A DNA stretch of 64,000 bases from an uncultured delta proteobacterium (GTDB lineage Bacteria > Desulfobacterota > Desulfobacteria > Desulfobacterales > JAFDCJ01), in assembly GCA_963769935.1 (NCBI GenBank), contig CAVYNY010000017.1:96001-160000 (forward strand), in the 5' to 3' direction. Every line of letters starts with the position of its first letter. The first letter of the stretch is position 1. The position numbers were made by a program, and so were the translations under genes. Below the pieces are notes generated by a model that was given only the letters and a program-made list of their open reading frames with translations, was not told the origin of the DNA and did no database searches. Shown piece after piece: positions 39,084-64,000 of the stretch.

Positions 39084-39132
39084 GACATATTTCCTAATTA
39101 TTTACAAGCCCAAACTTAAGGGAAATGTTCGA

Positions 39133-40664: not shown

Positions 40665-40688
40665 GATGAAGATAAGGAGAACAACTGG

Positions 40689-41873: not shown

Positions 41874-41895
41874 CCTGAATAATCCAGGCAAGCAT

Positions 41896-41932
41896 AAATG
41901 GCTGGCGGCGCTCTGCCGCCGGCTATTTTTTT
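41896..41932 (+). terminator. Rho-independent terminator after omcS
   Basis: AAATGGCTGGCGGC-GCTCT-GCCGCCGGCTATTTTTTT. Confidence 0.85.
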
Positions 41933-42058
41933 GACTGAATTGGGCATTGACGGTATATTATGATTGATGCTATCCAATCACCGTCGGTATGTAGATATCC
42001 CATTTTTTCAAGGTTGGATTGAAGCCCCCCTTTTCTGCCCCTAAAGGAGGTCAGGCTT

Positions 42059-43489: not shown

Positions 43490-43492
43490 GAT

Positions 43493-45688: not shown

Positions 45689-45882
45689 GTCTCACCCGGA
45701 AGCTGGAGGCGTGAATGCCGGCGTGAAGTCAGGCTGGTTTTTCGCAACGGCAAGGGCTTCTTTTTATCGTCATTTTAGCGGGGAATGTCAAAGCAGTTGA
45801 TCGCAAAGGCAAAAGCAGCTATGCTTTAAAAAGCATTTTGCAAAATCAGAGGGCCAAGATACTTTAATACGAGGAAATTAAG

Positions 45883-46476
45883 ATGGTTAGAGCGGCAAAT
45901 CGCACACATTTCAGGCTCTGTCTTTTATCCTTTATCCTTATTTTTTCGGTTGCCTGCGGTTCCAAATACAACATATCCGAAAATTACCATGACCCGGATG
46001 TCGATTTCGCGCTCCTGCGGACTGTGGCCGTGATGCCGTTTTCCAATCTGACCAATGATAAGCTGGCGGGGGAAAGGGTGCGCAGTACTTTTATGAACAG
46101 CCTCCTGTCTACCGGCGCGCTTTATGTGATTCCTCCCGGGGAGGTGGCGCGCGGAATTTCACGGGCTGGAATCGACAACCCATGGGCCCCATCCGGCGAG
46201 GATATCAACAAATTCGCGGCGATTGTCGGTGCCGATTCCGTGATTACCGGGGTTGTCACGGAATATGGGGAGGTACGGTCGGGCGCCGTAACGGCCAATG
46301 TGATATCATTGAGCATGCAAATGCTTGAGAAAGATTCACGCAAAGTCATATGGTCTGCAGCCACTACCAAAGGCGGGATATCCATCTGGGATAGGCTTTT
46401 CGGCGGCGGCGGCCAGCCCATGGAAGATGTAACCCAAGCGGCGGTAGATGATATTATCAATAAACTTTTCTATTAG
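45883..46476 (+). CDS. CsgG/DUF799-like lipoprotein
   Basis: Lipobox SVAC, VAVMPFSNLT, ADSVITGVVTEY, KVIWSA. Confidence 0.75.
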   Translation: MVRAANRTHFRLCLLSFILIFSVACGSKYNISENYHDPDVDFALLRTVAVMPFSNLTNDKLAGERVRSTFMNSLLSTGALYVIPPGEVARGISRAGIDNPWAPSGEDINKFAAIVGADSVITGVVTEYGEVRSGAVTANVISLSMQMLEKDSRKVIWSAATTKGGISIWDRLFGGGGQPMEDVTQAAVDDIINKLFY

Positions 46477-47584
46477 GACGGCTGTCCTTCTGCTTGCATT
46501 TCTGCTTTGCAATTCAAGTGCTGCAGCCCAAAATGACGCGGCCGATGAAGCGGCTGTCCCCAAGACCAGCGGCAGTACTGAACGGCTTAAAATTGCAGTC
46601 TATCCGGTCTCAAACCTCAGCGGAAGCACCGCGCCGCTTGCCGCCATAGGCCTGCAGCTGATCGGGGAGCTTAAAGATTCGGACGCCACCCTCATCGAGG
46701 GTGACGTCCTTGACAGCGTCATTACCAAATACCGTGTTCGTTACCTGGGCGGTCTTGATAAGGCGACCGCGCAGGCGCTGCGGCGGGATGCCGGGGCCGA
46801 TTGCGTTCTGATAACATCGTTGGAGCTTTACAGTGAAGTAGTTCCCCCCAAAATTGCGTTGACAGCCCGGTTGGTTTCAACCGGAAGTAAGACGGAAATT
46901 CTATGGATCGATGGTATCGGCCTGGCCGGTGACGACGCTCCCGGGCTTCTGGCGCATGGGTTGGTCGAAGACCCCCTGATGCTGATGAGAAGAGCCGTTC
47001 ATCGCCTGGCACAATCCCTGACAGTTTTTCTATCCGGGCAGGGGAAACGGGTGAATTCCCGGTCGCCCCAGAAAAAGTTCGCTCCCGAGGTCATCTACCG
47101 TAAAGATGTCCTGGCGGGCGACAAGACTTATAGAGTGGCGGTTGTGCCCTTTTTCAACCCGAGTGCCCGCACCTTCGCCGGAGAGATCCTGGCGCTGCAT
47201 TTTGTCAGACAGCTATGGGCGCTTGAGAATTTTAAGATCATTGAACCCGGCGTGGTGCGGCAGCAGCTTCTCAAATCAAGGATTATCATGAATAGCGGCA
47301 TTTCCCTGGCCGATGCCGATCTCATTGGCCACGAGTTGAATGCCGATCTCATTCTAAACGGCAAGGTCATTGATTATCAGGACTATCGAGGCTACAGCGG
47401 TATCGTCAAAGTGGATTTCTCGGCCCAGCTCTTCGAACGCGCCAGCCGCGAGGTGGTTTGGTCGGTAAAAAGCTATCATCAGGGGGATGACGGCGTTTTC
47501 TTTTTCGATTGGGGAAAGGTAAATACGGCTTACGCGATGGCCAGCCAGATGGTGCAGCTGGCGGTGGAGGAGATGGGTGAGTAG
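46448..47584 (+). CDS. Tandem CsgG/DUF799-like domain protein
   Basis: IAVYPVSNLS..EILW and VAVVPFFNPS..ADLILNGKVIDY..EVVWS. Confidence 0.7.
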   Translation: MILSINFSIRTAVLLLAFLLCNSSAAAQNDAADEAAVPKTSGSTERLKIAVYPVSNLSGSTAPLAAIGLQLIGELKDSDATLIEGDVLDSVITKYRVRYLGGLDKATAQALRRDAGADCVLITSLELYSEVVPPKIALTARLVSTGSKTEILWIDGIGLAGDDAPGLLAHGLVEDPLMLMRRAVHRLAQSLTVFLSGQGKRVNSRSPQKKFAPEVIYRKDVLAGDKTYRVAVVPFFNPSARTFAGEILALHFVRQLWALENFKIIEPGVVRQQLLKSRIIMNSGISLADADLIGHELNADLILNGKVIDYQDYRGYSGIVKVDFSAQLFERASREVVWSVKSYHQGDDGVFFFDWGKVNTAYAMASQMVQLAVEEMGE

Positions 47585-47712
47585 TTTCAAGTTAATTGTT
47601 ATTGGTTATTGGCCGTTGGTTGCTGGTCAGTGGCTCGTTATGAATAAAAGCAGTGTCTAAAAACTATACCGCGAAAGGTTGATCAGAGCGAACCTGAAAG
47701 TGAAGTGAGAAG

Positions 47713-49281
47713 ATGAAGCCCGGTACCCAAAATCCGGTAATAACCCCTTTTCGACCTGAAATGAAAAAATCCTTGCCGTATATTTACGTCCTCGCCTTTT
47801 TTTCAGGTATGTGCATCATGGCCAATGAACTTTGTGCATCCCGACTCGTGGCACCCTATTTCGGTACCTCCTCCTTTGTCTGGACCAACATCATCGGCGT
47901 CATAATGATTGCCCTCTCGGCCGGTTACGTTATCGGCGGGAAGCTCGCCGATCGGAAACCAAGGCTTGGTATCCTGTTGAAGCTGCTCCTGGCTGCTTGT
48001 GTGTTTCTCTTCCTGCTCCCTTTTGTGGTTTACCCCGTTGTCCAGGGGCTCTCATCTTTCTTGGAGAGCTTCAACTCCTCATTTTCGTTCATATTTTTCG
48101 GATCGCTCTTAGCCATAATTTTCCTGTTCTCTCCACCGATCGTGATCTTGGGCATGACCAGTCCTTTCCTTATACGCATTGTTGCCCGGACCGACCACGT
48201 GGGGGGCTCTGTAGGGCGCATTTTCGGCATCTCAACCATCGGGAGCGTCGTTGGAACATTTTTGCCTGTCCTTGTGCTCATTCCGGCCATCGGCACAAGC
48301 AAGACGATCCTGTTCTTTTCCTCAGCCCTCTTCGTCGTCGCCGCTCTGGGTTTCACTGGAAAAACAAGGGCGCTTCTTTCAGTAGCGGCGATCGTGCCGT
48401 TCCTTTTCCCGGTGCCGGACGCGAGGCGAACTCCGGGAAAGATCTACGCGACGGAGTCGTCCTATCAGTATATAGAGGTGTTCGACATAGGCTCTTACCG
48501 TTATCTCGTGTACAACAACGCAGCTGGATTTCAGACGGTCGCCAACAAGAGAAGTCCTCTCACAGGCCTGAACTACTACTACGACTACTATTCTCTCCTC
48601 CCCTTCATTTTTGAGGGCACGCCCAAAAAGGCCCTTATCATAGGCCTGGGGGGCGGCATTATCGCGAACCAGTTGCGCTACTTTCATCCGGAAATCATCG
48701 TAGATGGCGTCGAAATAGACCCGAAGGTCATACAGGTCGCCCGGAAATACTTCGCCCTTAGGTCCGATGCAGATGTATTCAATCAGGACGGACGTATCTT
48801 TGTGACATTGAGCAAAAAAAAATACGACATTGTCATCATCGATGCTTACACACGACAAGTCTACATTCCTTTTCACCTGACAACTGTGGAATTCTTCACG
48901 AAGCTGAAGGATAGACTTTCGGAACAGGGAATTGTCGCAATGAATGTTTCCGCGCCCAGAGAAGACTCGCCGCTCCTGCAGAGCATCATGAACACGCTGC
49001 GGCTTGTGTTCGGTCACGTGTATCTATTCAGAATCCCGATGTCTTACGACAATATCGTGCTCGTCTCAGACAGAAGCTTGGACTTCGGGTTGTTCGGACG
49101 GGCGGCCGGGACCGAACTTCAGGGCATCGCCCAGTTAAGCCGGCCCCTGTTCCGGGAAATCAAAACCAACGGCAAGTACGAACCGCTTACCGACGACCGG
49201 GCTCCCGTCGAACATATGGTGGATTGGGAGATTCTCAAACAGGAAATCAAGGCTGATAAAGCCGGACCCGGTGCCGGCTGA
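47713..49281 (+). CDS. Fused membrane/spermidine synthase-like protein
   Basis: SRLVAPYFGTS, IIGLGGG, VEIDP, DGRIF, IIDAY, LTDDRAPVE; the start may be 47761. Confidence 0.85.
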   Translation: MKPGTQNPVITPFRPEMKKSLPYIYVLAFFSGMCIMANELCASRLVAPYFGTSSFVWTNIIGVIMIALSAGYVIGGKLADRKPRLGILLKLLLAACVFLFLLPFVVYPVVQGLSSFLESFNSSFSFIFFGSLLAIIFLFSPPIVILGMTSPFLIRIVARTDHVGGSVGRIFGISTIGSVVGTFLPVLVLIPAIGTSKTILFFSSALFVVAALGFTGKTRALLSVAAIVPFLFPVPDARRTPGKIYATESSYQYIEVFDIGSYRYLVYNNAAGFQTVANKRSPLTGLNYYYDYYSLLPFIFEGTPKKALIIGLGGGIIANQLRYFHPEIIVDGVEIDPKVIQVARKYFALRSDADVFNQDGRIFVTLSKKKYDIVIIDAYTRQVYIPFHLTTVEFFTKLKDRLSEQGIVAMNVSAPREDSPLLQSIMNTLRLVFGHVYLFRIPMSYDNIVLVSDRSLDFGLFGRAAGTELQGIAQLSRPLFREIKTNGKYEPLTDDRAPVEHMVDWEILKQEIKADKAGPGAG

Positions 49282-49300: not shown

Positions 49301-50689
49301 CTACTCCAGCCCATATTTCTTCACCTGGTAGCGCAGCGTATCGTAGCTGATGTCCAGCAGTTTGGCTGCCAGGGTCTTGTTGTAATTTGATTTTTCGAGC
49401 GCCTGGCGGATGAGGTCCTTTTCCACCTCCTCCAGGGATATACCCGAATCGGGCAATGAAATTTTATCGCCGGTAAGTTGTTTGGTGCTTAAATTGTTGC
49501 CGAAGATCCATTTGGGCATCTGTTCCGGTGCAATAATTTCCGCATCTTCAAGCACGACGAATCGTTCGACCAGATTCTTGAGCTCTCTGACATTGCCCGG
49601 CCAGGCGTAGTTTATCATCAATTCTTCTGCCTGCGGTGTAAAGCCTTTAATTATTTTTTTATTATATTTCTTGGCAAAGTGGCTCAGAAAATAATTGGCC
49701 AGCAAGGGGATATCATCCTGTCTTTTTCTAAGCGGCAGGACGTGCAGATAAAAGGCGGTCAAACGAAAGAACAGGTCTTTGCGGAATTCCCCTTTGCTCA
49801 CCGCTTCGGAGAGGTTGCGATTCGTCGTGGCGATAACCGTCGCCTCCACATCGATTTCCCCTTTGCCGCCGATGCGTCTTATTTTGCGGTCTTCCAAAAC
49901 TCTGAGCAACTTGCTCTGAAGGTCCAATTTCATGTCCCCGATCTCATCGAGCAGGATGGCTCCGCCATTCGCCATTTCAAATAATCCCTTTTTGTCCGAC
50001 TTGGCATCGGTAAACGATCCCTTCTCATAGCCGAACAGCTGACTTTCAAGCAGCGATTCCGGCATGGCGGCACAGTTCACCGAAATAAAGGGTGCATTCC
50101 AGGAGTTGTCCGTATTGAACATTAATTTATGAATTCGTCGGGCGATAAGCTCTTTGCCGGTTCCGCTCTCTCCGGTGACGAGAATGTTGGAGACCCGGGC
50201 CTGGGCAATTTTCTTGATTTTTTCCTCCAGATCCTTGATGATGCCGGACTCTCCGACAATTTCCCTGTCAATGACTTCGGAATAGGCTTTTCTGAGATAG
50301 TCCACCTCCTCTTTGAGATTTTCTTTTTCAATAATGTTGCGGATAACGATTTTGACCTCATCCGTGTTAAACGGTTTGGTCAGGTAGTCGGAGGCGCCGA
50401 GCTTCATTGCTCTGACAGCCGTTTCGGCCGTATCATCCGCGGTGAGCATCACCACGGGGGTCGTCAGTCCATTTTCTTTTATTTCCTTAAGTATATCAAT
50501 TCCGTCACGATCGGGCATTCGGATGTCCATCAGCAGCAGATCCGGATTGCAGGACTTTATTTTATCGATAATGCCGGTGGTTTCAGTCTCGGCAAAAACG
50601 TCGTAGCCTTCCCTCCTCAACGCCTTGGAGAGCACCGTGACGATAAGTTCTTCGTCATCCAGCAAAAATACTTTCCCCTTGCTTTTCAT
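49301..50689 (-). CDS. NtrC-family sigma54-dependent response regulator
   Basis: REC (LDDE, MDIRMP, KPF), GESGTGKE, GSFTDA, WPGNVREL, C-terminal HTH. Confidence 0.95.
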   Translation of the reverse strand: MKSKGKVFLLDDEELIVTVLSKALRREGYDVFAETETTGIIDKIKSCNPDLLLMDIRMPDRDGIDILKEIKENGLTTPVVMLTADDTAETAVRAMKLGASDYLTKPFNTDEVKIVIRNIIEKENLKEEVDYLRKAYSEVIDREIVGESGIIKDLEEKIKKIAQARVSNILVTGESGTGKELIARRIHKLMFNTDNSWNAPFISVNCAAMPESLLESQLFGYEKGSFTDAKSDKKGLFEMANGGAILLDEIGDMKLDLQSKLLRVLEDRKIRRIGGKGEIDVEATVIATTNRNLSEAVSKGEFRKDLFFRLTAFYLHVLPLRKRQDDIPLLANYFLSHFAKKYNKKIIKGFTPQAEELMINYAWPGNVRELKNLVERFVVLEDAEIIAPEQMPKWIFGNNLSTKQLTGDKISLPDSGISLEEVEKDLIRQALEKSNYNKTLAAKLLDISYDTLRYQVKKYGLE

Positions 50690-52896
50690 GCCGTCTGTCC
50701 CTTTATATCCTGCAAAACCTGAAGGGAAACATTGACAACGGTTCCCCGGTTGGGTGTGCTTTCGACATAAATGTCGCCGCCGTGCTCTTCGACGAGCCGC
50801 CGGGTGATCGCCAGCCCCAGGCCGGAGCCCTTGCTTTTGGTTGTGAAAAACGGCTGGAAGATTTGATCCAGCGCTGTCGTTTCAATGCCCTTGCCGGTGT
50901 CGGCAACCGCAATGCGGATGGAATTTAAAGCGGCATCATAGTATGTCTTAACCGCCAGGGCGCCGCCGTCGGACATGGCTTCGATCGCATTGAACATCAG
51001 ATTCAAAAATACCTGCTGCAGCTGCATGGGATCGGCCATGGTTTTGGGGATGTCGGCGCCAAAGTCCTTTAGTACTTTTATCGGACTTGGGGAATTCGAG
51101 GACAATAGGGGGTGCTTCAAGGAAAATGAAATGGTTTTATCAAGCAGATCGTTTATATCCGTAAGCATTAGCTGCAATTGGGGCGGCTTGGCGAAATTCA
51201 GCAGGCTCTTAATCAATAATTCGATGCGTTTAATTTCATCAACGGCTTTGACCACAATCGATCGGTCCTCTTCCGAGATGCAGGGCTCCTGAAGGAGTAC
51301 TTCCACCGATCCCTTGATGCCGGCCAGCGGATTTTTGATTTCATGGGCCAGGCCGGCCGCCCATTCGCCGACCGTTTTCAACTGTTCGGTTCGCTGCAAG
51401 GCTTCCTCCACCCGTTTACGGTCGGTGATATCCCGGATGACATGAATCAATCCGGTAAGTTGGTGATCGCTGTCGAACATAGGCATTGCGCGTATCTCAA
51501 GAAACCGTTCCAGGTGCGGCTCATACATTTCAAAGGAGGCCGGCTTTTCCGTCCGGTAGCATTCACAGCTGGGGCAATCTTCCGGCGGACTTTGCTTGCC
51601 ATGGTAATACTGATAGCATTTTGCTTCGGTATCTTCCAGAAACGGCAGATTCAGGAATTTTTCAGCGGCCTTGTTGGCGCGGATGATTCTGAAATCCCTA
51701 TCATGAATTGTTATCATATCGGTGATGGTATTAAACGTGTCCTCCCATTCCTGCTTGGACTGCAGGACCAATTGCTCCATTTGCCTGCGTACCGAGATAT
51801 CGCGGTCAAACGCCAGGATATATCTGTGACCCATATATTCGACCAGCCCGGCGCTGATTTCTACCGGAAAAATCGTGCCGTCTTTTTTGCGGTGGTCTAA
51901 CTCAGCCTTGATCCATTCACCTTCTAAAATGCGCCGGAACCGTGCCGGGGCAACCTCGGCATCCTCCGGGGCATCGAGATCTTTTATCAGGTTTAGCTTC
52001 AGCATTTCATCGATCGTATAGCCATGCATATCGGCGGCGGCCTGGTTGGCATCCACAATATCGCCGCGGTTTTCGCCTTCGGCTTCGACCATGAAAATGG
52101 CGTCCCCGGCGCTTTCAAAGAGCGTGCGGTATCTTCGTTCGCTTTCCCGGATATTTAAGATGTTTTGCTTCAGGGACTCCGACATGGCATTAAAGGATGT
52201 GGCCACCTCGCCGAACTCATTTTTTAAGCCTTTGATGCGGTAATCCAGATCACCTTCCTGCAATTGACGCGTGGCTTTTAAAAGAACCTTGACCGGTTTG
52301 GTAAACTCGCCGATGACAAAAAAACAAAAGCCGGCCGCAATCAGAAGCGTTATGACCACCAGCGTATTGACAATATGTTCTGACCGGCCGATTGCATTCA
52401 GTGAGGCTTCGGTTTTATCACCCAGCCTGCTGCTGGCTATGTGCACCATGTCGTTGGCCTGCTCCACCAGCGTCTGCGATGTCCGGAACGCCGTGTCGCC
52501 CTCCTGCATCCATTCGGCAAGATTGCCCTTCAGGGTCAGAATCCGGCCGATAGATCCTTTTAACAACTCGACTCCCGAGTTCAATACCTCAAGCCGTTTT
52601 ACCACCTGGGGTCTGTGATGGCAATCAAAGCAGGTGACGGACACGCGCTTCAAATTATTGACGTTGGTCAGAATTTCGTCCGGGCTTTTATCGTAGCGTG
52701 TCCCGATGAGGTAGAGGTCCGACTGCACATTTTTTATCTGGATCAGCAAATGTTCCCGCAGGATTTCAACCTGGTGGAGTTTAATCAGATAGCCGAGCTC
52801 CGAGGTGGCATCCTGGATTGTTGAAACGATATAGACGCCGCCGCTGATCAATATGATGCAGACGAGGCCTAAAGCCATGAATATTTTTTTCTTCAT
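50686..52896 (-). CDS. Sensor histidine kinase with periplasmic CxxCH, HAMP and two PAS domains
   Basis: CFDCHH between two TM helices, AHEIKNPL, PFFTTK, GSGLGL. Confidence 0.92.
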   Translation of the reverse strand: MKKKIFMALGLVCIILISGGVYIVSTIQDATSELGYLIKLHQVEILREHLLIQIKNVQSDLYLIGTRYDKSPDEILTNVNNLKRVSVTCFDCHHRPQVVKRLEVLNSGVELLKGSIGRILTLKGNLAEWMQEGDTAFRTSQTLVEQANDMVHIASSRLGDKTEASLNAIGRSEHIVNTLVVITLLIAAGFCFFVIGEFTKPVKVLLKATRQLQEGDLDYRIKGLKNEFGEVATSFNAMSESLKQNILNIRESERRYRTLFESAGDAIFMVEAEGENRGDIVDANQAAADMHGYTIDEMLKLNLIKDLDAPEDAEVAPARFRRILEGEWIKAELDHRKKDGTIFPVEISAGLVEYMGHRYILAFDRDISVRRQMEQLVLQSKQEWEDTFNTITDMITIHDRDFRIIRANKAAEKFLNLPFLEDTEAKCYQYYHGKQSPPEDCPSCECYRTEKPASFEMYEPHLERFLEIRAMPMFDSDHQLTGLIHVIRDITDRKRVEEALQRTEQLKTVGEWAAGLAHEIKNPLAGIKGSVEVLLQEPCISEEDRSIVVKAVDEIKRIELLIKSLLNFAKPPQLQLMLTDINDLLDKTISFSLKHPLLSSNSPSPIKVLKDFGADIPKTMADPMQLQQVFLNLMFNAIEAMSDGGALAVKTYYDAALNSIRIAVADTGKGIETTALDQIFQPFFTTKSKGSGLGLAITRRLVEEHGGDIYVESTPNRGTVVNVSLQVLQDIKGQTA

Positions 52897-53531: not shown

Positions 53532-55943
53532 CTACTCCTCCTTGACTGTGCGCTGCGCGGGATCATGGAAATACAGGTATTTAAACAATCCGTCGGGACC
53601 GTGGCAGTCCATGCACGGCAAATTACGGGATTGAACCCTGAGAAAACTATTGTCGGCCGACCCCTCTGTCTTGACGCCGGTGCCCTCGGAAGGACTCCCT
53701 GAACTCCACTGATGCGCATTGTGGCAGGAGGGGCAGGAAAGATTGCCGACCGTTATTAACTGGCCGGTGGTCTTGTCAAAAAGTGGGAAGTAGTTGGCCC
53801 GGCCTTTCGTATTGCGGCCGACGTTGGTAATCAGCTTACCCGCCGGGTGAAAGGCAATCGGTGGAATTTTATCAGCGGCCGCGCCATTTCTGGAATGGCA
53901 GGAAATGCACATCATTTCGGCAATGCTGTTGCCTGAGGTTAAATCCCGGGCCCAGAGCCTGATTTTATTGGGGCTGTTGTGAACCAGATGACAGACGCCG
54001 CAGGTGCCCGATTCGAGCGGAGTTTGACCGATTATATTCAGGGCCGACGGTGCCATCGAGACCAGATCATGATCGGTTTTATTGATATACGCCTGCGCAG
54101 CATGGCAGTTTTCGCAAAGCCCGGCTGCGGGTGAATTTTCCAATCTTAAAAAACTGTTTTGTGAGGTCCCCTCGATCTTAATCTGGTTTTTATCAGGTGT
54201 CTGCGACGGCGCCCAGCGATGCGGATCATGGCAGGTGGGACAGGCGATGACACCGTTTGGCGAAATTTTCCCCTTTCCGTCAAATAACGGCAAGGTGGTG
54301 GCGAGCCCTTTTTCAGAAGGTGGCAGGTCGATTGGATGGGAATAATCTTTGATTACTTTTTTGCCTGCCAGGCCGTTGTCGCTATGACAGTCGAGACAAA
54401 GGCCATCGACCGCACTTTTATTTTCCGCGGTTCGTTTCCTGGCCCAGAGAAATGTCTGCTGGGCATTGTGCACCAGGTGGCAGCTGCCGCAGACACCCGA
54501 CTGCAAAGGCGTTTGATTCCGGGTGTTCCTGGCTTCCGGCGCCACCTTGCCCAGATCATGTTTGGAATCGGCAATGTAAAATTTGTCACGGTGGCATTCA
54601 CGGCAGATTTCCGGTGACGGCTGCCTGATAAAGAATTGGCGGATCGGTTTGTTTTCTTTGGCTGCGGCGGCGGCAGGGGCTGCCGCCGACCGATGAGGGT
54701 CATGGCAGGTGGTGCACGTTATGACCCCCTTCTGATCCTGCAATCCGAAATCGTTATAAAGCGGAAGGTCCGGCTTATTTTCAGGCCGAACCGCCAGCGG
54801 ATGCTGGGTGCCGGTTAAACTGGCTTTACCTGCGATATTGCCCTGGCTGTGACAGCTCAGGCACAGTGCTGTGGTAAAATTTTCTCCGCCGGCAAGTTGT
54901 CTGGCCGCCTTGTGGGGCAGATGGCAGGCCGAACAAACGCCGGCCTGAGCTACCGTCTGGCCTTGAAGATTCCTTTCATTCGGCCCTGACAGCTGCAGAT
55001 TGTGGGTGGTATCGGAAATCGACTTTTTGTCCGGGTGACAGTTCAGGCAAAAGGCCGCCTTTTCATCGTTTGTTACCAGCAGGGACGCCTGTTCGGTCTG
55101 GTTTTTATGGACCTTATGGCAGGTCAGGCATATCAACTCTCCGTTGCGGCCTGTTTCGGCACCTTTTTTTATTATCGCTTCAGGTATCGTTGCTTTTACC
55201 GGCTTGACGTTTACGACATGCATGGGTTTTTTTTTGCCGGCCGGAGTCATAGGGTTCTTATCCGGGTGGCATGCCATACAAAGACTGGAATCGCGGCCGC
55301 TTTCAATCAGAAAACTCTCATACTTCGCCCCGTGGGCGGCGTGGCAGGTTTCGCATATCAGTTGATTGGGTTTATCGCCCGCCAACGCATACCCTTCCAT
55401 CAGACGGTGGGGAATTTCCTGCTTGACGGTATCCAACGGGTGATTGTGAAATTTGCTGGCATCAGCCATCTCCGGGTGGCACATGCGGCACATGGCTGAA
55501 TTGCGGTTGGAGGTTCGCATGAAAATCGACTCTTTGTTGCCGGGCCCGCTGGGAACTCCGTGGGCGGTGTGACAGGTGGCACATACCATGTTGCCCTGTT
55601 CGTCCAGCGGAAAAATAGGGGGTATCTTCATGTGCGCGGGCGGCGGCACATTGGTTTTGTGTTGAGCCGTCTGGTAGGCGCGGGCGCGGGAATCCTCGAT
55701 GCTGCCGTCATGACAGGAAAAGCACATTTCAGGCGTGGCAACTACTTTGGCAGCCGTATAATCGACCAGGTCACTCCCCCGGCCCTCTACAAAAAAGGTG
55801 TCAATCCAGCGATAGTGACAGATGGCACATGCCTTGGCTGAATTGGGGTTTTTCGGCGGCGCCACATTCATCTGGGCATCGGACAACTTGAAAAGCAGAA
55901 CCAGCGCAACGCTAAGTAGAATCAGGAAACTTTTTCTTTTCAT
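53532..55943 (-). CDS. 20-heme cytochrome c, exported
   Basis: 20 CxxCH counted; internal three-heme repeats (HDL..GVC..CH..HP). Confidence 0.9.
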   Translation of the reverse strand: MKRKSFLILLSVALVLLFKLSDAQMNVAPPKNPNSAKACAICHYRWIDTFFVEGRGSDLVDYTAAKVVATPEMCFSCHDGSIEDSRARAYQTAQHKTNVPPPAHMKIPPIFPLDEQGNMVCATCHTAHGVPSGPGNKESIFMRTSNRNSAMCRMCHPEMADASKFHNHPLDTVKQEIPHRLMEGYALAGDKPNQLICETCHAAHGAKYESFLIESGRDSSLCMACHPDKNPMTPAGKKKPMHVVNVKPVKATIPEAIIKKGAETGRNGELICLTCHKVHKNQTEQASLLVTNDEKAAFCLNCHPDKKSISDTTHNLQLSGPNERNLQGQTVAQAGVCSACHLPHKAARQLAGGENFTTALCLSCHSQGNIAGKASLTGTQHPLAVRPENKPDLPLYNDFGLQDQKGVITCTTCHDPHRSAAAPAAAAAKENKPIRQFFIRQPSPEICRECHRDKFYIADSKHDLGKVAPEARNTRNQTPLQSGVCGSCHLVHNAQQTFLWARKRTAENKSAVDGLCLDCHSDNGLAGKKVIKDYSHPIDLPPSEKGLATTLPLFDGKGKISPNGVIACPTCHDPHRWAPSQTPDKNQIKIEGTSQNSFLRLENSPAAGLCENCHAAQAYINKTDHDLVSMAPSALNIIGQTPLESGTCGVCHLVHNSPNKIRLWARDLTSGNSIAEMMCISCHSRNGAAADKIPPIAFHPAGKLITNVGRNTKGRANYFPLFDKTTGQLITVGNLSCPSCHNAHQWSSGSPSEGTGVKTEGSADNSFLRVQSRNLPCMDCHGPDGLFKYLYFHDPAQRTVKEE

Positions 55944-56021
55944 CCCTAATTATTCAAATTTGGAAAATCTGGTCCTCTGGGCCAGGCCAGAGTAAACCGG
56001 CTAGGCCGAAGACATATGCCG

Positions 56022-56161
56022 TGGAATGATGGAATATTGGAATGTTGGAATTATGGGTTCTGAAGGATGAAATCTTTTTTCGATACACCTCATAGATCAG
56101 AAACTAAAAACAAGATAAATTCCGTTTTTTAAACCCAATATTCCATTATTCCAGCATTCCA
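56022..56161. repeat. Inverted array of TGGAATRN octamers
   Basis: TGGAATGATGGAATATTGGAATGTTGGAATTATGGG ... CCCAATATTCCATTATTCCAGCATTCCA. Confidence 0.8.
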
Positions 56162-56231
56162 TTGGACGTCTAAAGGAAAACGCCGCCTTTGTGGTGTGAA
56201 ATCAATTCCGGGCCCTCGGGGTTATGATTCC

Positions 56232-57182
56232 CTACTTTGATTCAGCTTCGCCCACCTGGCGGTATACGCCGACCTTGTTGGCAAACATTTCCACCACATA
56301 GAGTCGGTCCTGCCGATCTATGAATAGGCCAACAGGAGTCTTGAATTTTTTTACCTTGCCGGTTGCCGGCTCACCGATAGCGGCGTAAAACTCCCCGGTC
56401 GACGTGAAAATTTGAATGACGCCCATGTAACTGTCACTGACATAGATGCGGTTGTTTTTATCAACGGCGACGCCCTTGGGTCTGAAAAATTCTCCTTTTT
56501 CAACCCCCCATCCGCCGATGAAATTTACAAACAATCCGTCCGGATTCAGCTCCTGAACCCGGGTATTGATCACATCAACGATATAGAGGTATTTTTGTTT
56601 ATCCAGCGCTATCAGAAAAGGATAGCGGAAGGCGCGTTTGTCGGTGCCCGGTGTGCCCCATGAATCAAGCAATTTAAGATTTGAGAGATCGTAGACCAGA
56701 ATGCGATGGTTGTCGTTGTCCACGACATAGCAGCGGTGGCGGGTGTCATCGACGGCCACATCGGTGGGGTCCGCCGGATGTTTCAAAGCCGGAAGTTTAA
56801 TTTGGGCGATAAAGCCGCCGGTGCGATCAAATATCTGCACCCGATGGTTGCCGGAGTCAGCCACATATACCCGGCCTGATTCAGGGATGTCGATGCCCAG
56901 CGGGTATTTGAACTCCCCGTCGCCTGCACCCGCCAGGCCGAAGGAAGAAACCGGCATTCCCCGGGAGCTGTATATCCGGATACGGTTGTTGACGCCGTCA
57001 ACCACATAGATTTGTCCATCTTTTGATACAGCGACCTCGCTGGGCTCCTTTAGCTGATCGGTTATTTCGAATTGAAGCTCCACATTAATTAGACGAATCC
57101 CCAATGCCGGCGTCACCGCCAGCAGCAGGATGACGGCCGACAGCACTAGGTATGAGTAGCTGTGTTTAGGCAAATATAACAT
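56232..57182 (-). CDS. NHL-repeat beta-propeller, exported
   Basis: YVVDGVNNRI, VADSGNHRVQIF, FFRPKGVAVD. Confidence 0.9.
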   Translation of the reverse strand: MLYLPKHSYSYLVLSAVILLLAVTPALGIRLINVELQFEITDQLKEPSEVAVSKDGQIYVVDGVNNRIRIYSSRGMPVSSFGLAGAGDGEFKYPLGIDIPESGRVYVADSGNHRVQIFDRTGGFIAQIKLPALKHPADPTDVAVDDTRHRCYVVDNDNHRILVYDLSNLKLLDSWGTPGTDKRAFRYPFLIALDKQKYLYIVDVINTRVQELNPDGLFVNFIGGWGVEKGEFFRPKGVAVDKNNRIYVSDSYMGVIQIFTSTGEFYAAIGEPATGKVKKFKTPVGLFIDRQDRLYVVEMFANKVGVYRQVGEAESK

Positions 57183-57228
57183 CAAAGTCCTTTTTTAGGT
57201 TTCAGGTATCAGGTGTCAGCACAGCCAA

Positions 57229-57479
57229 CAATCAAAATCACAAATTCCAAATCACAAAACTCAAACAATTTCCAATGACCAAAATTCAAAATTCCAAACA
57301 GGACTTCATCGGTTTTGTTATCGCTTTAGATAAATAAGCGATCCTTTGATCGCGAACGCACAAAAGTTCTAAAACATGAAAAAATAAAACAGTTTGATTT
57401 TCTTGATATGGCCGGTTTCGGTCATTGATTATTGTGATTTGGAATTTATTTGTTATTTGGTGCTTGTAATTTGGAATTT
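57229..57479. repeat. Inverted array of AAATYMC heptamers
   Basis: AAATCACAAATTCCAAATCAC..CAATGACC versus GGTCATTG..GTGATTTGGAATTT. Confidence 0.75.
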
Positions 57480-57542
57480 ATACCTTTCCGCCAGTTCTTT
57501 GCCATCGGTTTTCTGCCTCCTGGAAATTGACATGACACCCGT

Positions 57543-58520
57543 CTAGTTTTCAAACAGGTCCGGAAAATAAAAGGTTTTGTATTTAGTCACCAGGCCTTTG
57601 ATGTTCAGCGATTTAAGATTGGTGGCCGTCTTTTCGCTAAAGCCCAGCTGCTTAAAATCCAGGATGCTGTGGGAAGAATGGCACTCCTCACAGGCCACGC
57701 TGATTTCCTTTTTGGCGATGTCCCGGTGAAAATAACTCAGGCCTTCGGTTCTCTGCTTGTCTGTCAGGGATTTTTCCTTCTGCAGGAATTCTTTTGCCTT
57801 GCGGGTGTCCTCAGGGTTGAATGTCAGTTGTCTTTCTCCGTCATTTTTTACATAAACCGCTATTCTGGATAAAAAATGCGCTGATTTGTGGGCGGTTTGC
57901 GTCCTGGGGTTGTAATACGTACCGAAAGGCTTCCCGCTGAAATCCGCGTTTTCGGTGTCTTTCCAGTCAAAGGTGAAATCAGGGAATTTTTCTTTTTTTA
58001 AATGACATACGTCACAGACCATAAATCCGGTGTGCAAATTTAAAAGCGCACGGACCAGTTTATTTTCAGTATGGGGATACAACGGGTGGCAAACACGGCA
58101 GGCGGTTTCGTCATCCAGCCGGGTGATATACGACTGTTCTCCCTTATGGATATCTTTCAAAGGGTAATTTTTTACCAGCTGCTTGTCTTTTAATTCGCGG
58201 TGACAGGCAGTGTTGCAATTAACCTGTGTCTCACCCGTGTGGGGAACTTTCACCACACCGGTGTGGCACATGCGGCAGTCCACCTTGCCATGGGGCGACT
58301 GGTCATATTTTGCTTCATCAATATGCAGCACTGTGAATCCGCCATCTTTATTATGCCGGACAAGACCTGGATATTGATGACAGGTAAGGCACCCCCCTTC
58401 GTCGAGTGCAAAGCTCACAGTGGCCGTACTAAGGAGCAAGCTGCAAACAACCAGTGTCACAAAGACCAATGGATACGCCCTCAAATTTTTTAAACGAATT
58501 GAATGAAAAAGCGCTTTCAT
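57543..58520 (-). CDS. Multiheme cytochrome c (5 CxxCH + 1 CX3CH)
   Basis: CLTCH, CRMCH, CNTACH, CRVCH, CDVCH, CEECH; the ATG at 58520 lies downstream of the sigma54 promoter. Confidence 0.88.
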   Translation of the reverse strand: MKALFHSIRLKNLRAYPLVFVTLVVCSLLLSTATVSFALDEGGCLTCHQYPGLVRHNKDGGFTVLHIDEAKYDQSPHGKVDCRMCHTGVVKVPHTGETQVNCNTACHRELKDKQLVKNYPLKDIHKGEQSYITRLDDETACRVCHPLYPHTENKLVRALLNLHTGFMVCDVCHLKKEKFPDFTFDWKDTENADFSGKPFGTYYNPRTQTAHKSAHFLSRIAVYVKNDGERQLTFNPEDTRKAKEFLQKEKSLTDKQRTEGLSYFHRDIAKKEISVACEECHSSHSILDFKQLGFSEKTATNLKSLNIKGLVTKYKTFYFPDLFEN

Positions 58521-58596
58521 GACAATAACGTCCTGGTCTGTTTGTTCAAAATCTGAATCACCCAATGCCAATAATGCTAACCTCGAAACTTTAGAG

Positions 58597-58611
58597 GCAA
58601 TTACTATACCA
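58597..58611 (-). promoter_or_regulatory. Sigma54 -24/-12 promoter
   Basis: TGGTAT-AGTAA-TTGC, 14/15 identical to 39133-39147. Confidence 0.85.
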
Positions 58612-58763
58612 AACAGCATTTAGTTTCCAGCTTTTTTGCCAAAGCATCTTTTACCCCCCCTTGGTGTTCAGGGAAAGCAGGGTGGTTGCCGCGTCCTCGT
58701 TTTTGCATCGGAAAAACAAGGGCCGCGTGCAAAAAAACCGTTGCGGTCAGGGCATTCGTTGCC

Positions 58764-58799
58764 TGGTGAAATCACCAATCTGATTCGGTGAAATGCCCA
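58764..58799. promoter_or_regulatory. Tandem enhancer sites
   Basis: TGGTGAAATCACCA and CGGTGAAATGCCCA, 22 bp apart. Confidence 0.8.
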
Positions 58800-58886
58800 A
58801 TTGTTCTTTATTTGATAAACGAATTAAATCCGGCTGACTACCATTAACAAAAGGTTTTTAAAAGATCATTCCCGTCGCAGACGCTC

Positions 58887-58901
58887 TGGCACATACATTG
58901 C
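58887..58901 (+). promoter_or_regulatory. Sigma54 -24/-12 promoter
   Basis: TGGCAC-ATACA-TTGC, consensus match. Confidence 0.9.
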
Positions 58902-59042
58902 AAAATATTCTTAAAATCAAATAATTGCAACCCAATTCCGTTTCGAATCCCAATTTTTAAGTAAGGTCAGGTAAAGCATCTGCGGTAATTTATAACCGAC
59001 TGGTAAATGCCGATTCTTCAATTTAAAGAGGCAGTGCAGCTT

Positions 59043-60119
59043 ATGGTAATCAAAAAACTCCTTAAATTCATAATCTCCTTCTGGGCCATCACCTTATTCT
59101 TAGCGCTTATCACGCCGCCGGGTTCCGTAGCCTCCGATATCGGCAACTGTCTTTTATGCCACAAGTACCCCGGTCTAAGCCGGATAGACGAAAACGGCAA
59201 ATTCAGGCTCATGTACGTCAATGAAGACATATTCAATAAAAGCGTACATGCCAAAGTTAAATGCGAAGGCTGCCACCCGGACATCCAAAAGATTCCCCAC
59301 GAGCCGGCCAAAAAAGTCGACTGCCTGACCCAATGCCACATTATCGAGCCATCCAGCGAAAAAAAATTTTCCCACAAAGATGTCGCGGATTATTTGGCCA
59401 ATAGTGTGCATGCCAAGGTCGATAAAAATGGACAACCCAAAAAATATCAGGAGGATATACCGACGTGCAAGAACTGTCATGAAAACCCGCTTTACCGGCC
59501 GCTGTCTTTTTTCAAACGGGTGCGCCCCGGCATATCCGATGTCGCTATAGGACGGTGCCGGGTTTGTCATAAATCCGATGAATTTATCTATAGATTCTAT
59601 AACCACGTGACGACCAGGCTGCACAAGATCAGAAACCCGAGAAATATCGCCGAAGTGTGTGCCAGATGCCATGACGATGACGAAATCGTCGCGCGGCATA
59701 ACCTGTCCACCAAAGCCGTATTCTCCTACGGCGAAACGTTTCACGGCAAGGCGGCCCGTTTTCTGGATGAAAGAATCCCCGATTGCCTCGACTGTCATGT
59801 CAAACCCGGCGAATCCGTGCACCAGATGCTGAGCCACAACGATCCGAATTCCATCACGCATGTAAACAACCGAGGCAGAATCTGCGCCACTGCGGACTGC
59901 CATCCCAAGGCCACACCGCAAATGGCCAACTACAAAGTTCACGCTGAGTTCAACAAGGAGCAAAGCCCTCTGCAGTATTATTTTCAGGTATTTTTTATCG
60001 TATTGACCGGCGGCACCCTGCTGCCCCTGATGGGCCTGTTGTTTCTCGATTTATTCAGAAGATTGATTCCGCATGCTGCCATCAAACGGAGTAAGTCCAC
60101 CAATGGAAAAACATCTTAA
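59043..60119 (+). CDS. Membrane-anchored multiheme cytochrome c (CbcL c-domain-like)
   Basis: 6 CxxCH + CLTQCH + CATADCH; signal peptide and C-terminal TM helix. Confidence 0.85.
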   Translation: MVIKKLLKFIISFWAITLFLALITPPGSVASDIGNCLLCHKYPGLSRIDENGKFRLMYVNEDIFNKSVHAKVKCEGCHPDIQKIPHEPAKKVDCLTQCHIIEPSSEKKFSHKDVADYLANSVHAKVDKNGQPKKYQEDIPTCKNCHENPLYRPLSFFKRVRPGISDVAIGRCRVCHKSDEFIYRFYNHVTTRLHKIRNPRNIAEVCARCHDDDEIVARHNLSTKAVFSYGETFHGKAARFLDERIPDCLDCHVKPGESVHQMLSHNDPNSITHVNNRGRICATADCHPKATPQMANYKVHAEFNKEQSPLQYYFQVFFIVLTGGTLLPLMGLLFLDLFRRLIPHAAIKRSKSTNGKTS

Positions 60120-60972
60120 AATCAAGATAAAAAACGGCCAAAAATATTTCTACAAATTTACGCCGCTTCAGAGAGCACAGCATATAACCATTGCATCATG
60201 TGTCATCGTGCTGGTCCTGACCGGCATGCCCCTTAAATTTCATGATGCATTCTGGGCGCCCTATCTTTATGCGTTCTTTGGCGGAATTAAGGTGGCCCCG
60301 GTGGTTCATAAGACTGCCGGCACGGTCTTGATGCTTCTTTTTATGTTTCACCTGATTTACGTGTTCTACTGCATCGTGACGGACATGATAATTCCGTTGA
60401 AGAAAAAAAACCAACTGCGGGTAGGCACGGTCCTCAAAACCCTGCTGACCCACCCCATCATGCCAAGCTTCAAGGATGTCAGGGATATCATCGATCTTTT
60501 GAAATATTACCTGTTCTTGACCGATAAACGTCCCGCAGGCGAAAAGTTTACCTGGAAAGAAAAGTTTGACTACTGGGCACCCTTCTGGGGCATCGTCATC
60601 ATGGTGACCACCGGTATCATTATGTGGCAGAAGGAAATCGTTACCAGTATCCTGCCGGGATATGTCATCAACTTCGCCCTGATTGCCCACAGCGACGAAG
60701 CCCTGCTGGCGGCCTTGTTTTTGTTCATCTGGCACTTTTACAATGTGCATTTTTCCACCTCCGTTTTTCCCATGGGTACGGTATTTCTGACGGGATATCT
60801 GCCGGAGCATCTGATGGTCGAAGAACATTATGATTACTACCAGAAAGTCATGAAAGCCGCCGGATTAGAGGATGAGATTCTGGCACCGGATGGTTCGGCA
60901 GCAAAAAAATCGGAAAAAGCGCCGGAACCAACCCGCATCATATCCATCTCGGATCTGCCGCGAGTATCCTGA
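60103..60972 (+). CDS. Di-heme cytochrome b (FdnI/CbcL b-domain-like)
   Basis: QRAQH, LTGMPLK, VHK, KFTWKEKFDYWA, AHSDEALLA, WHFYNVH. Confidence 0.88.
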   Translation: MEKHLKIKIKNGQKYFYKFTPLQRAQHITIASCVIVLVLTGMPLKFHDAFWAPYLYAFFGGIKVAPVVHKTAGTVLMLLFMFHLIYVFYCIVTDMIIPLKKKNQLRVGTVLKTLLTHPIMPSFKDVRDIIDLLKYYLFLTDKRPAGEKFTWKEKFDYWAPFWGIVIMVTTGIIMWQKEIVTSILPGYVINFALIAHSDEALLAALFLFIWHFYNVHFSTSVFPMGTVFLTGYLPEHLMVEEHYDYYQKVMKAAGLEDEILAPDGSAAKKSEKAPEPTRIISISDLPRVS

Positions 60973-60998
60973 GCGGACGCTGAAAGAGGAAGTTATTA

Positions 60999-61877
60999 AT
61001 GAAGACGTTGGTTGCAAAACTATATATCCTGGGGTCTTTGGCTTTAACGGTGATTTTTATCATCATTATCTGGAAGGTGACTTTCGGGCATATTGTCGAA
61101 GAGTATCGCGCCCGCAAGGTGAATGTAGAACTCGCCCAAATAAAAGAAAAGCAGCAAAAGGAAAAAGAGGCAGTCACATTTCAAAAAGCGATTCTGGAAG
61201 GCGAGAAGCGCCAAAAGATTTACCTCGGCTACCGGGTTTTGGAGCAAAGGTGGATAGAAGGCCATTTTCATCACATTGATTTTGATTTCAAGCCGGACAA
61301 GACAAATTACTGCATTGAATGCCACGGCGACCTGCCCCACGACAAGATCAAGGAGTTACGGGCGTTCGGCAATATGCATGCCTCTTTTATGGCCTGCGAG
61401 ACCTGTCATGTCAGGCTTGAGGGGGAAGCCCGGACCGGTGTGTTCAAATGGTACGACCGCCAGGCCGGTCAGATTGTTGAAAGTCCGGTGAAAGAAGGGG
61501 TTCGGCCCGGCATGTATAACGCAAAAATTCTGCCGTTTGAGCGGGTTAACGGACAGCTGCAAAGAGTCGACAATCCGGAAAGAATTGCATTCGCGCACGA
61601 ATACCAGAAAACGGAAAAAGACCTGACCGAGCTGCAAAAGTCCAAGGCCAGAAAAATCATTCATAACATCGTCAGTGAAAAACCCTATTTATGCGAAATG
61701 TGCCACCAGACGGAGAATCCGGTTTTGCCGCTCAAAGAGCTCGGATATCCGCAGCACCGCATTGATACGATCGTCAGCACCGAAGTCATCGGGATGATCA
61801 AAAATTACACCAAGTTCTATATTCCATTGCTGCTGGAGCCCGGGGCGGGAACCCAAGCCCCGGCCCCGCAGCAGTAA
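60999..61877 (+). CDS. Membrane-anchored triheme cytochrome c
   Basis: N-terminal TM helix; CIECH, CETCH, CEMCH; resembles the C-half of 57543..58520. Confidence 0.85.
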   Translation: MKTLVAKLYILGSLALTVIFIIIIWKVTFGHIVEEYRARKVNVELAQIKEKQQKEKEAVTFQKAILEGEKRQKIYLGYRVLEQRWIEGHFHHIDFDFKPDKTNYCIECHGDLPHDKIKELRAFGNMHASFMACETCHVRLEGEARTGVFKWYDRQAGQIVESPVKEGVRPGMYNAKILPFERVNGQLQRVDNPERIAFAHEYQKTEKDLTELQKSKARKIIHNIVSEKPYLCEMCHQTENPVLPLKELGYPQHRIDTIVSTEVIGMIKNYTKFYIPLLLEPGAGTQAPAPQQ

Positions 61878-61945
61878 ATATTTAAACAACTATGAACAAT
61901 ATTGAGGCAATTGAAGCCTATCAGAAGGTCTTAAACCTGTCGGCC

Positions 61946-62033
61946 TTGGAGTAATGGAGTGATGGAGTATTGGAGTGTTGGAGTATTGGAAAAAGACATC
62001 AAACCTTTAGCCATTTCTCCAGTACTCCAATAC
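61946..62033. repeat. Inverted array of TGGAGTRN octamers
   Basis: TGGAGTAATGGAGTGATGGAGTATTGGAGTGTTGGAGTATTGG ... CTCCAGTACTCCAATAC. Confidence 0.8.
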
Positions 62034-62122
62034 GCTGAAACCGATTTAAATTGAAACCGCACACAACAGGTTACCTTCGTTTGGTTCATAGATCCGAAAA
62101 ATAAAGATAGAGGAGAACTGCT

Positions 62123-63280
62123 TTGGGAATTGGCAGATTAAGCGCTTTTACATCCTGTATTTTTTCCGTTCTTTTTTTGTTGCTGTCTTCCGGCATGGCC
62201 CTGGGAACAAATGCCGTTTCCGACACGGAAAATTGTCTGCTGTGCCATCGATATCCGAGCATCGGCAGATATGATGAAAGCGGAACCAAAAGGGTTTTTT
62301 ATGTCAACGATAAAAAATTTGCCGCCTCAGTTCACGGCAAATTGAAGTGTAAAGATTGTCATGTCGACCTCAACCAGATACCGCACACGGATGTCAAAAA
62401 GGTTGATTGTGCCACCAAATGCCACATCAAGGAGCCCTCAACCAATCAGGAATTCTCCCACATCAACATGATTGAAAAATTCGAGGCCAGCGTCCATGGA
62501 GCCGGAACGGCCGAAAATCCCAAACCTTTTCCCGAAGATTTGCCCACCTGCAAATACTGCCACGAAAATCGCATGTACAACCAGTTGGATGGGGTATGGG
62601 GCAACAGCGCGGCCCTGTCCAATGAAACTCTGGCGCGCTGTGTCGGCTGTCACACGAAGGAAAGCTGGGCTCAAAATTTTTACGCCCATTTTACCCATCG
62701 CATGCGGCGCCGCCGGACCCAGGCCGAAGTCGTAAAATTGTGCACCAGCTGCCATGAAGATACCCATAAAATGGCGCGCCACGGTCTGGAGAGTATTGAG
62801 ACTTATAAAGACACTTTTCACTGGAACCTGGTCAGGTACGGCGTCAAAAACGCCCCGGACTGCATCAGCTGCCATGTACCGGTCGGTTATGCCACTCACG
62901 ACATACGCCCCCGAAGTGATCCGATTTCACCGCTTCACATTTTCAACCGCATCAAGACCTGCAGCAACCAGGGCGGGATTCAGATCTGTCATCCCGGGGC
63001 GACGGCCGAGTTTGCCACCGGCAGAGTGCATGCGTACGGCACAAAAGTTCAGATGCTGGCCGGCACCAACTTCAGTGATTTCAGTAATAAGGAAATGACC
63101 AGCGTACTCAAACGGGCCGAAGCCGATACATCTGAAGCAGAAGTTTTTGATTACAAGGTGCTGCAGTTGATCAAGCTGTTTTATAAAATCATGATCGGCG
63201 GGACGGTTTTGTTTATGGGCTTTCATCAATGGCTGGATTTTTTGCGGACAAAAAGAAGGCAGAAGCAGTCAAAAAAATAA
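62123..63280 (+). CDS. Membrane-anchored multiheme cytochrome c, paralog of 59043..60119
   Basis: 6 CxxCH + CATKCH + CSNQGGIQICH; C-terminal TM helix. Confidence 0.85.
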   Translation: MGIGRLSAFTSCIFSVLFLLLSSGMALGTNAVSDTENCLLCHRYPSIGRYDESGTKRVFYVNDKKFAASVHGKLKCKDCHVDLNQIPHTDVKKVDCATKCHIKEPSTNQEFSHINMIEKFEASVHGAGTAENPKPFPEDLPTCKYCHENRMYNQLDGVWGNSAALSNETLARCVGCHTKESWAQNFYAHFTHRMRRRRTQAEVVKLCTSCHEDTHKMARHGLESIETYKDTFHWNLVRYGVKNAPDCISCHVPVGYATHDIRPRSDPISPLHIFNRIKTCSNQGGIQICHPGATAEFATGRVHAYGTKVQMLAGTNFSDFSNKEMTSVLKRAEADTSEAEVFDYKVLQLIKLFYKIMIGGTVLFMGFHQWLDFLRTKRRQKQSKK

Positions 63281-63339
63281 GGCATAATCCGGGATCATAA
63301 ATAACTATTGTAAGACATATTTCCTGAAAGGCCGCTAAC

Positions 63340-64000
63340 ATGGAAATTGAAGAATCAGTATTAAGCGCTGCTGCCGCACCGCCTGTCGAAAATGTCAGGG
63401 GCAGTCGGTATTTTGTGCGACTCAACTATTCCGAAAGGGTGCAGCATTCGGTGTTTGCCATGTGTTTCATTGTCCTGGTCATCACCGGATTCATGCTCAA
63501 AATTCCGGACAGCATCGTGAAGTCCTTTGGAACGGCGGGCGAGATCGTGTTCAGCTACCGCAGCATTTTGCATCGCACGGCCGGCATAATTATGATGCTG
63601 GTGGGTGTCTATCACTTTTATTATCTGATCTTTAAACGGGCGGGCCGTCGCTGGCTGATCGACATGCTGCCGCGCTTAAAAGATTTAAAAGATATGTGCG
63701 ATAATTTCCTCTATTACATCAACCTGAAAGAAGAACCACCTGAATTTGATCGCTTCAGCTATAAACATAAAATCGAATACGGGGCCCTGATTGCCGGCAC
63801 CACGATCGTATCGGTTACCGGACTGATCTTGTGGTCGCAGTACAAATGGAGCAAATTTGTCGTGGACATTGCGGCTCTTGTCCACGGCATGGAAGCCATT
63901 CTTGCGTGTTTGGCAATCATGATATGGCATCTGTATGAAATCCATTTCAGACCGCACAAATCTCCGCTGGACAATACGTGGCTTACCGGAGTGATCGATG
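63340..64000 (+). CDS. Second di-heme cytochrome b; runs off the window (absent from the ORF track)
   Basis: Manual translation: ERVQH, ITGFMLK, LHRTAG, DRFSYKHKIEY, VHGMEAILA, WHLYEIH. Confidence 0.88.
   Translation, partial: MEIEESVLSAAAAPPVENVRGSRYFVRLNYSERVQHSVFAMCFIVLVITGFMLKIPDSIVKSFGTAGEIVFSYRSILHRTAGIIMMLVGVYHFYYLIFKRAGRRWLIDMLPRLKDLKDMCDNFLYYINLKEEPPEFDRFSYKHKIEYGALIAGTTIVSVTGLILWSQYKWSKFVVDIAALVHGMEAILACLAIMIWHLYEIHFRPHKSPLDNTWLTGVID

Follow-up and report, generated by a model that had tools for sequence, protein, structure and literature searches.

The 64,000-nucleotide stretch of DNA analysed here (the window) comes from an uncultured delta proteobacterium and contains two similar control regions, one (A) ahead of a predicted nanowire operon and the other (B) ahead of cytochrome operons on the quinone side. 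The question raised by the locus was whether the operons around the two regions are switched together and, if so, by which regulator. A preliminary description made from the sequence alone had held that the likeness of the regions proves a shared regulatory logic, and had left the regulator unnamed.

The twin control regions are a real feature of the window. The 15-mer TGGTGAAATCACCAA was located at 39273-39287 and at 58764-58778, its sole two exact copies in the 7.99-Mb, 41-contig genome. Each region contains two half-sites, imperfect 14-bp palindromes of the form TGGTG-N4-CACCA, at a period of 22 bp. Enhancer A (39273..39308, no strand assigned) consists of half-sites 39273-39286 and 39295-39308, while enhancer B (58764..58799, likewise without strand and kept in relatives) consists of half-sites 58764-58777 and 58786-58799; the second half-sites thus begin at 39295 and 58786, 22 bp past the first. 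The 8-bp linkers, AACCGATT in A and ATCTGATT in B, are identical at six of eight positions. Local alignment of A with B gave a score of 56 (shuffles: mean 22, maximum 35, none of 1000 as high), and the likeness was confined to the motif blocks, the spacers scoring like shuffles (944/1000 and 207/1000 shuffles reached their scores). The identical 15-mer, the 22-bp tandem period with similar linkers, the 14/15 identity of the leftward promoters (minus-strand starts 39147 and 58611) and the placing of the rightward promoters 123 bp (58887) and 133 bp (39406) from the first base of the enhancer had all been reported in the preliminary description and were borne out.

A matrix was built from the four half-sites of the window only, so that diverged sites may be missed, and was used to scan the genome. 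Besides A and B, which were the only two intergenic high-scoring tandem sites, the scan returned one site inside a gene and four weak calls. The third-best site (C21:39920) was rejected as a regulon member as it lies inside a gene. A relaxed scan of the genome gave 74 tandem calls, with a promoter at 75-135 bp only for A, B and one weak call, and so yielded no further convincing member. The preliminary description had held that its reading would fall if the motif were common genome-wide without sigma54 context; the tandem motif was found not to be common, and the regulon in this genome is local.

Four sets of genes diverge from the two regions. To the right of A (39487..49281, plus strand) are an NHL protein, an OmcS homologue (likely 40689-41873), a YncE-like propeller, a putative outer-membrane barrel of 731 aa, two lipoprotein-like genes and a spermidine-synthase-like membrane protein; the barrel has no family match, and its role is putative. 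The OmcS homologue aligned with PDB 6EF8 (E 4e-77, residues 1-407) and has six CxxCH motifs, and may by homology form a conductive filament. To the left of A (32971..39029, minus strand) are a SurA/PPIase-like protein, 26-heme and 16-heme cytochromes and an NHL protein. Leftward of B (53532..58520, minus strand) are a 5-heme cytochrome (likely start 58520), an NHL protein and a 20-heme cytochrome. The genes to the right of B (59043..64000, plus strand) encode a 6-heme cytochrome c, a cytochrome b, a 3-heme c, a 6-heme c and a second cytochrome b, followed outside the window by a further 3-heme c; the multiheme cytochromes of this group are membrane-anchored. By analogy with CbcBA, as described in PMC10553843, its cytochrome b modules would be quinol oxidoreductases.

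Several other features were recorded in and near these genes. Repeat-like inserts occur at 31920-32045, which has high RNA contig depth and loose ends, and in the gaps 52897-53531, 55944-56231, 57186-57542 and 61878-62122. A second six-heme cytochrome gene (32062-32913, plus strand) runs convergently to the A-left genes, and neither a sigma54 promoter nor an enhancer was found ahead of it; G022 has a further enhancer at the 3' end of this second six-heme cytochrome gene, facing a spermidine-synthase-like gene. Beyond the window (65702-71854 in window numbering) are a 7-heme cytochrome, ResB-/CcsA-like maturation genes (identified by a look at the sequence) and a second 20-heme paralogue. A NapC/NirT-like tetraheme and octaheme cytochrome gene pair, identified in the same manner, lies at 7610-9679 (plus strand), apart from the regulon.

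All four gene sets face a sigma54-type promoter. The rightward promoters are at 39406..39421 (A, plus strand), 115.5 bp from the enhancer centre, and at 58887..58902 (B, plus strand), a perfect -24/-12 consensus 105.5 bp from the enhancer centre. The leftward promoters, which lie farther off, are at 39132..39147 (A, minus strand, 143.5 bp) and 58596..58611 (B, minus strand, 170.5 bp), the latter a TGGT variant found at the same position in G008 and G021. When scored against the general sigma54 consensus, the four had 0, 0, 1 and 3 mismatches, with GG and GC at fixed spacing, and they are kept in relatives. Nine promoter-like matches were found in window 30000-64000; the four at A and B are intergenic or before likely start codons, the remaining five are intragenic, and only the A and B matches qualify as good sigma54 promoters. 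Near the A-right promoter, TTGCAAT occurs twice (39415-39440) across the -12 element, as an inverted repeat around the start.

The preliminary description had also read the spacing in helical turns. On the rightward side this held, the two promoters being in phase; the leftward promoters (126 versus 153 bp ahead of the enhancer's first base) differ by about 2.6 turns, and the phase match is therefore limited to the rightward side. Sites resembling the IHF consensus (taken from PMC7962754, up to two mismatches allowed) were located at 39354..39366 in A (plus strand, one mismatch, 46 bp before the promoter) and at 58845..58857 in B (plus strand, two mismatches, 36 bp before the promoter). Both are centred 69.5 bp from the enhancer centre, which places the extra helical turn of A between the IHF-like site and the promoter.

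The same geometry was examined at the sites of other genomes by a near/far rule that was picked, like the IHF window, after the data had been viewed. Distances from the enhancer centre to the near promoter clustered at about 92, 104, 115 and 125 bp (36 sites), with phasing of R=0.66 at 11.4 bp (n=36; none of 2000 uniform null sets as high); when the modal class was left out, R was 0.54 at 11 bp. An IHF-like match lay 30-42 bp before 25 of the 36 near promoters (shuffle mean 11.8, none of 500 as high), in a window set after viewing the alignment. Far promoters were unphased to the enhancer (n=20; 879/2000 null sets as high) and without clear IHF signal (8/20; 31/500 shuffles as high). An opposite promoter was retained as well at 20 of the 36 near-promoter sites, and three of 40 sites had no promoter under the rule used. 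The far promoters form a distinct class, TGGTAT...AATTGC, with a near-fixed spacer; since it occurs on both site types across families, the 14/15 identity of the two leftward promoters is a feature of the class. Both far promoters of this genome (39132-39147, 58596-58611) have an A where close relatives have G. The possibility that a weak palindrome over the far promoters is a repressor site was discarded, since the palindrome is missing in G215 and G248.

Between the two regions lie, on the minus strand, an NtrC-type sigma54 activator (49301..50689, 462 aa; receiver, AAA+ and HTH domains) and a sensor kinase (50686..52896, 736 aa; a sensor between two membrane helices, HAMP, two PAS, kinase), and this pair is the likely regulator, the activator being the predicted cognate one for the palindromes. 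The activator matched Pfam PF00072, PF00158 (E 2.6e-62) and PF02954. Its sigma54-contact loop reads GSFTDA, a variant of GAFTGA in which the F-T pair, essential in that loop, is kept. The kinase has a CxxCH motif at residue 89, within a predicted four-helix sensor; the motif was present in 120/120 of the sensor homologues listed (the best 120 of 624 found) and invariant across 39 aligned sensors. The structure model of the sensor is all helical (mean pLDDT 88.9) and matched the NarQ sensor-TM-HAMP (E 2.6e-4) and Adeh_2942 (target TM-score 0.77). These features suggest that the sensor would bind heme covalently and sense redox. From the 57-92 bp gaps between kinase and 20-heme genes in G248 and G022, the B-left transcript probably continues into the kinase and activator; the same gap is 635 bp here.

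Conservation was surveyed first by pattern. The kinase sensor was found in 16 of 401 genomes of the order, and in a phylum survey in 25 of 401 genomes, this one included. The tandem pattern at up to three mismatches occurred in 24/401 order genomes, and its reversed control in none; at up to two mismatches it occurred in 9/401, and all nine encode the kinase. Any match was present in ten of the 16 kinase genomes versus 14 of the 385 others, the latter all at three mismatches. Loci were then fetched (1.21 Mb, 43 genomes) and gave 40 tandem calls, against 0-1 in each of five shuffles, a count in which six loci had been chosen by motif match and kin genomes are not independent. Periods in these loci were 22 bp for 31 pairs, 21 bp for seven and 23 bp for three, and no other period had more than four. 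G170 and G356, fetched for three-mismatch matches without kinase, yielded no matrix call. A scan of named genomes gave three loci only, one of them new.

A site at the nanowire or conduit genes together with one at the cytochrome b operon was found in seven genomes of five families (G000, G008, G021, G089, G106, G184, G245); in G215 and G248 the omcS site is retained together with one at NHL/20-heme genes. Outside the order, sites precede omcS-like genes in G417, G594, G638, G668, G672 and G742, that of G672 without a clear promoter. The scan of other omcS clusters that the preliminary description had called for gave sites before omcS in relatives; G454 has a full omcS cluster and no site in the fetched DNA. 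The kinase is encoded in each of the eight genomes of the order that have omcS, and omcS without the regulator was seen in none of the 401 genomes; the cassette accordingly travels as a unit, so that co-occurrence is inflated and the counts are not independent.

The enhancer is not tied to omcS. In G008 and G245 it heads an operon with an OmcE-type gene instead, and the outer module comprises a 9-10-heme protein, a 218-aa four-heme gene (L008:8105-8758 in G008, L060:18007-18660 in G245), NHL and barrel-like genes. The four-heme gene matched PDB 7TFS, an OmcE structure, and 9YUQ. Entry 9YUQ is the model from an OmcE nanowire paper (PMC13712944).

Within the fetched DNA, site and activator were largely found together. 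A recognition-helix signature was present in one of 41 activator candidates of this genome, namely the activator of the window, and kinase-adjacent activators with the signature formed one clade of 31 (support 0.995) in a tree that took the 78 of 93 candidates that were long enough. Among 29 genomes with a signature activator in the fetched DNA, 23 have a site; the six without (G335, G454, G535, G568, G740, G764) include three short contigs and the full cluster of G454 noted above. Sites were found in two of the 14 genomes without a signature activator there, G215, whose activator orthologue is on another contig, and G106, whose activator fragment abuts a run of N (assembly gap). On account of this gap, G106 was set aside as a case of 3.3-Mb operon separation or of sites outliving their regulator. 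Nine genomes with a sensor homologue and no adjacent signature activator (G046, G093, G137, G562, G591, G593, G620, G646, G784) had no site in the fetched DNA, and three of them have the sensor joined in one protein to an activator whose HTH is different. These fusions to a sigma54 AAA+ domain (G046:C21:48338-50575, G093:C328:4155-6392, G137:C232:22419-24431) have the form of a membrane-anchored one-component activator; the one in G046 lies close to an operon of 8-heme, 3-heme and cytochrome b genes that has a sigma54 promoter of its own.

An additional layer of control was identified just before omcS. A c-di-GMP-I-GGC (GEMM-I, RF03167) riboswitch aptamer was found at 40582..40663 (plus strand; 67.3 bits, cut-off 59), and a GEMM-I riboswitch recurs in 11 of the 15 relatives' loci scanned. 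The aptamer of the window keeps the G at what is probably position 20. A G at position 20 would favour c-di-GMP over cGAMP by the rule given in PMC6140456, and omcST of Geobacter is described as likewise under such a riboswitch (PMC6456294). Owing to this second layer before omcS, shared activation need not mean equal output.

RNA evidence came from four sediment metatranscriptomes of one study, in which RNA contigs 90-99% alike over parts of both A-side operons were found, indicating neither strand nor level. The bin that holds enhancer A (39171-39837) had almost no contig cover in the four runs, which is uninformative alone. Four contigs (two runs) start exactly at window 40447, a base that falls within the last part of the NHL gene and 240 bp ahead of omcS. 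This position is possibly a processing site or an internal start, a weak hint; folding of 40447-40690 gave a stability that is not unusual (z -1.0).

The reading that we prefer is that A and B are conserved tandem palindromes between divergent sigma54 promoters, and there is a good likelihood, judged from sequence comparison, that they bind the activator encoded between them and so co-switch the nanowire, periplasmic and inner-membrane cytochrome operons. By known sigma54 biology, the kinase would phosphorylate the activator, two activator dimers would occupy the half-sites two turns apart and then oligomerise, and IHF would bend the DNA so that the activator could open the near promoter. A looser loop, formed without IHF, would serve the far promoters. 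Positive feedback is proposed because the B-left transcript probably includes the kinase and activator. The least certain part of the scheme is the signal, which may come from a periplasmic heme c in the kinase through its redox or ligand state, with the chances about evenly divided.

Some of the same observations would fit an arrangement in which the activator at both sites drives the rightward promoters only, the leftward ones being otherwise governed or held down, so that two operons rather than four are controlled. Neither phasing nor a clear IHF signal was seen for the far promoters, and their class TGGTAT...AATTGC could mark the overlapping site of another factor. We nevertheless consider this unlikely, since no other activator site is evident near the far promoters, a sigma54 promoter requires an activator and distances above 300 bp occur in Desulfovibrio (both according to PMC4641369), and the opposite promoter is kept at 20/36 near-promoter sites. 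A different factor altogether, for instance a redox regulator of global reach or an activator whose gene lies at another locus, might bind the palindromes while the neighbouring pair controls other genes. The regulator was assigned by linkage and co-occurrence, and the three-mismatch matches in 14/385 kinase-less genomes, against none for the reversed control, indicate that related motifs of other activators may exist; however, none of the 385 had a match at two mismatches or fewer, sites were absent from the fetched DNA of the nine genomes with the sensor homologue and no adjacent signature activator, and in G394 and G301 sites directly precede the kinase gene, all of which makes this very improbable.

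It is hardly credible that the twin regions are a relic of local duplication, or a chance likeness, with no present shared control. The linkers and leftward promoters are indeed alike beyond the bare consensus, but the spacer DNA of A and B is unrelated, on which ground recent duplication of the whole region was rejected, and both site types persist in five families and in other orders. The linker bias itself is seen again among relatives (12/30 have GAT at positions 5-7), which favours selection over recent copying. A single regulon whose regulator can be identified is very likely, with comparative support short of proof. The claim of the preliminary description that nanowire and quinone-side operons form one regulon was well supported by the site pair kept in seven genomes of five families; its word "proves" was too strong, given the unphased leftward promoters and the riboswitch of omcS.

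More broadly, and with somewhat less than even confidence, the heme-c redox kinase and its sigma54 activator may act throughout Desulfobacterota as a portable master switch of extracellular electron transfer. One 36-bp enhancer would then co-induce quinol oxidoreductase, periplasmic, barrel and nanowire genes, its control would persist when the nanowire module changes from OmcS to OmcE type, and omcS would in addition be gated by a cyclic-dinucleotide riboswitch. How nanowire and conduit genes are induced outside Geobacter matters for iron reduction, for sulfide oxidation with iron oxides and for syntrophic electron transfer. The predicted regulon comes with a defined regulator, a defined binding site and a possible signal, which makes nanowire control outside Geobacter directly testable, and its motif marks which cytochrome operons of a genome likely act as one chain, sequence-unrelated modules included.

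The layout is that of ordinary sigma54 control. The motif, regulator and regulon were not found described in the literature searched, which was mostly open-access; RegPrecise and the additional files of PMC4641369, possible holders of a related motif, were outside its scope. The gene content resembles the Oet-type conduit/OmcS cluster of syntrophic sulfate reducers, in which an OmcS-like cytochrome has a putative barrel and large multiheme cytochromes as neighbours, and the cytochrome b and multiheme c modules resemble CbcBA as a quinone link, OetABI and CbcBA being likened by layout (PMC10553843). In the main text of that paper "sigma" and "two-component" gave no matches. In Desulfurivibrio alkaliphilus, growth with ferrihydrite strongly induces the omcS-like genes DA_402 and DA_403, with log2FC values of up to 11.3 and 8.1 (PMC12545173, Table S3).

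A CxxCH motif in a periplasmic sensor is shared with the heme-c sensors GSU0582 and GSU0935, which are PAS-like domains of chemoreceptors as described in PMC3831638, whereas the sensor of the window is predicted to be all-helical and is part of a kinase. The PAS-like alpha/beta fold is absent from the sensor model, the best matches of which are four-helix sensors. In predicted fold it is like the NarQ-type four-helix sensors; NarQ is not known to carry a heme motif.

In Geobacter sulfurreducens the omcS cluster likewise has a sensor kinase (GSU2507) next to it, together with the sigma54 response regulator GSU2506, and deletion of GSU2507 in an omcS mutant raised omcB transcripts, as described in PMC11077965 and PMC10599522. 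The two pairs are set apart by their annotated domains: in those sources GSU2507 is a 621-aa Cache_1/HAMP kinase and GSU2506 contains PAS, whereas the pair of the window consists of a 736-aa kinase with a heme-motif helical sensor and two PAS, and an activator without PAS. Pfam gave no Cache match in the window's kinase and no PAS match in its activator.

The nearest described analogue is DVU3142 of Desulfovibrio, the predicted regulator of the Ohc electron-transport operon (PMC4641369). The same source defines a sigma54 enhancer as a palindrome lying upstream of the promoter at a distance of about 100 bp or more, and the tandem 14-bp palindromes, at 105.5 and 115.5 bp from the near promoters, fall within this distance. 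Both cases are predictions from comparative genomics in which palindromic sites lie about 100 bp before a -24/-12 promoter, the regulator gene is linked and the target is electron transport. As presented there, DVU3142 is a one-component activator of one periplasm-to-membrane operon, whereas here a two-component pair is predicted to act on up to four operons that span the cell envelope.
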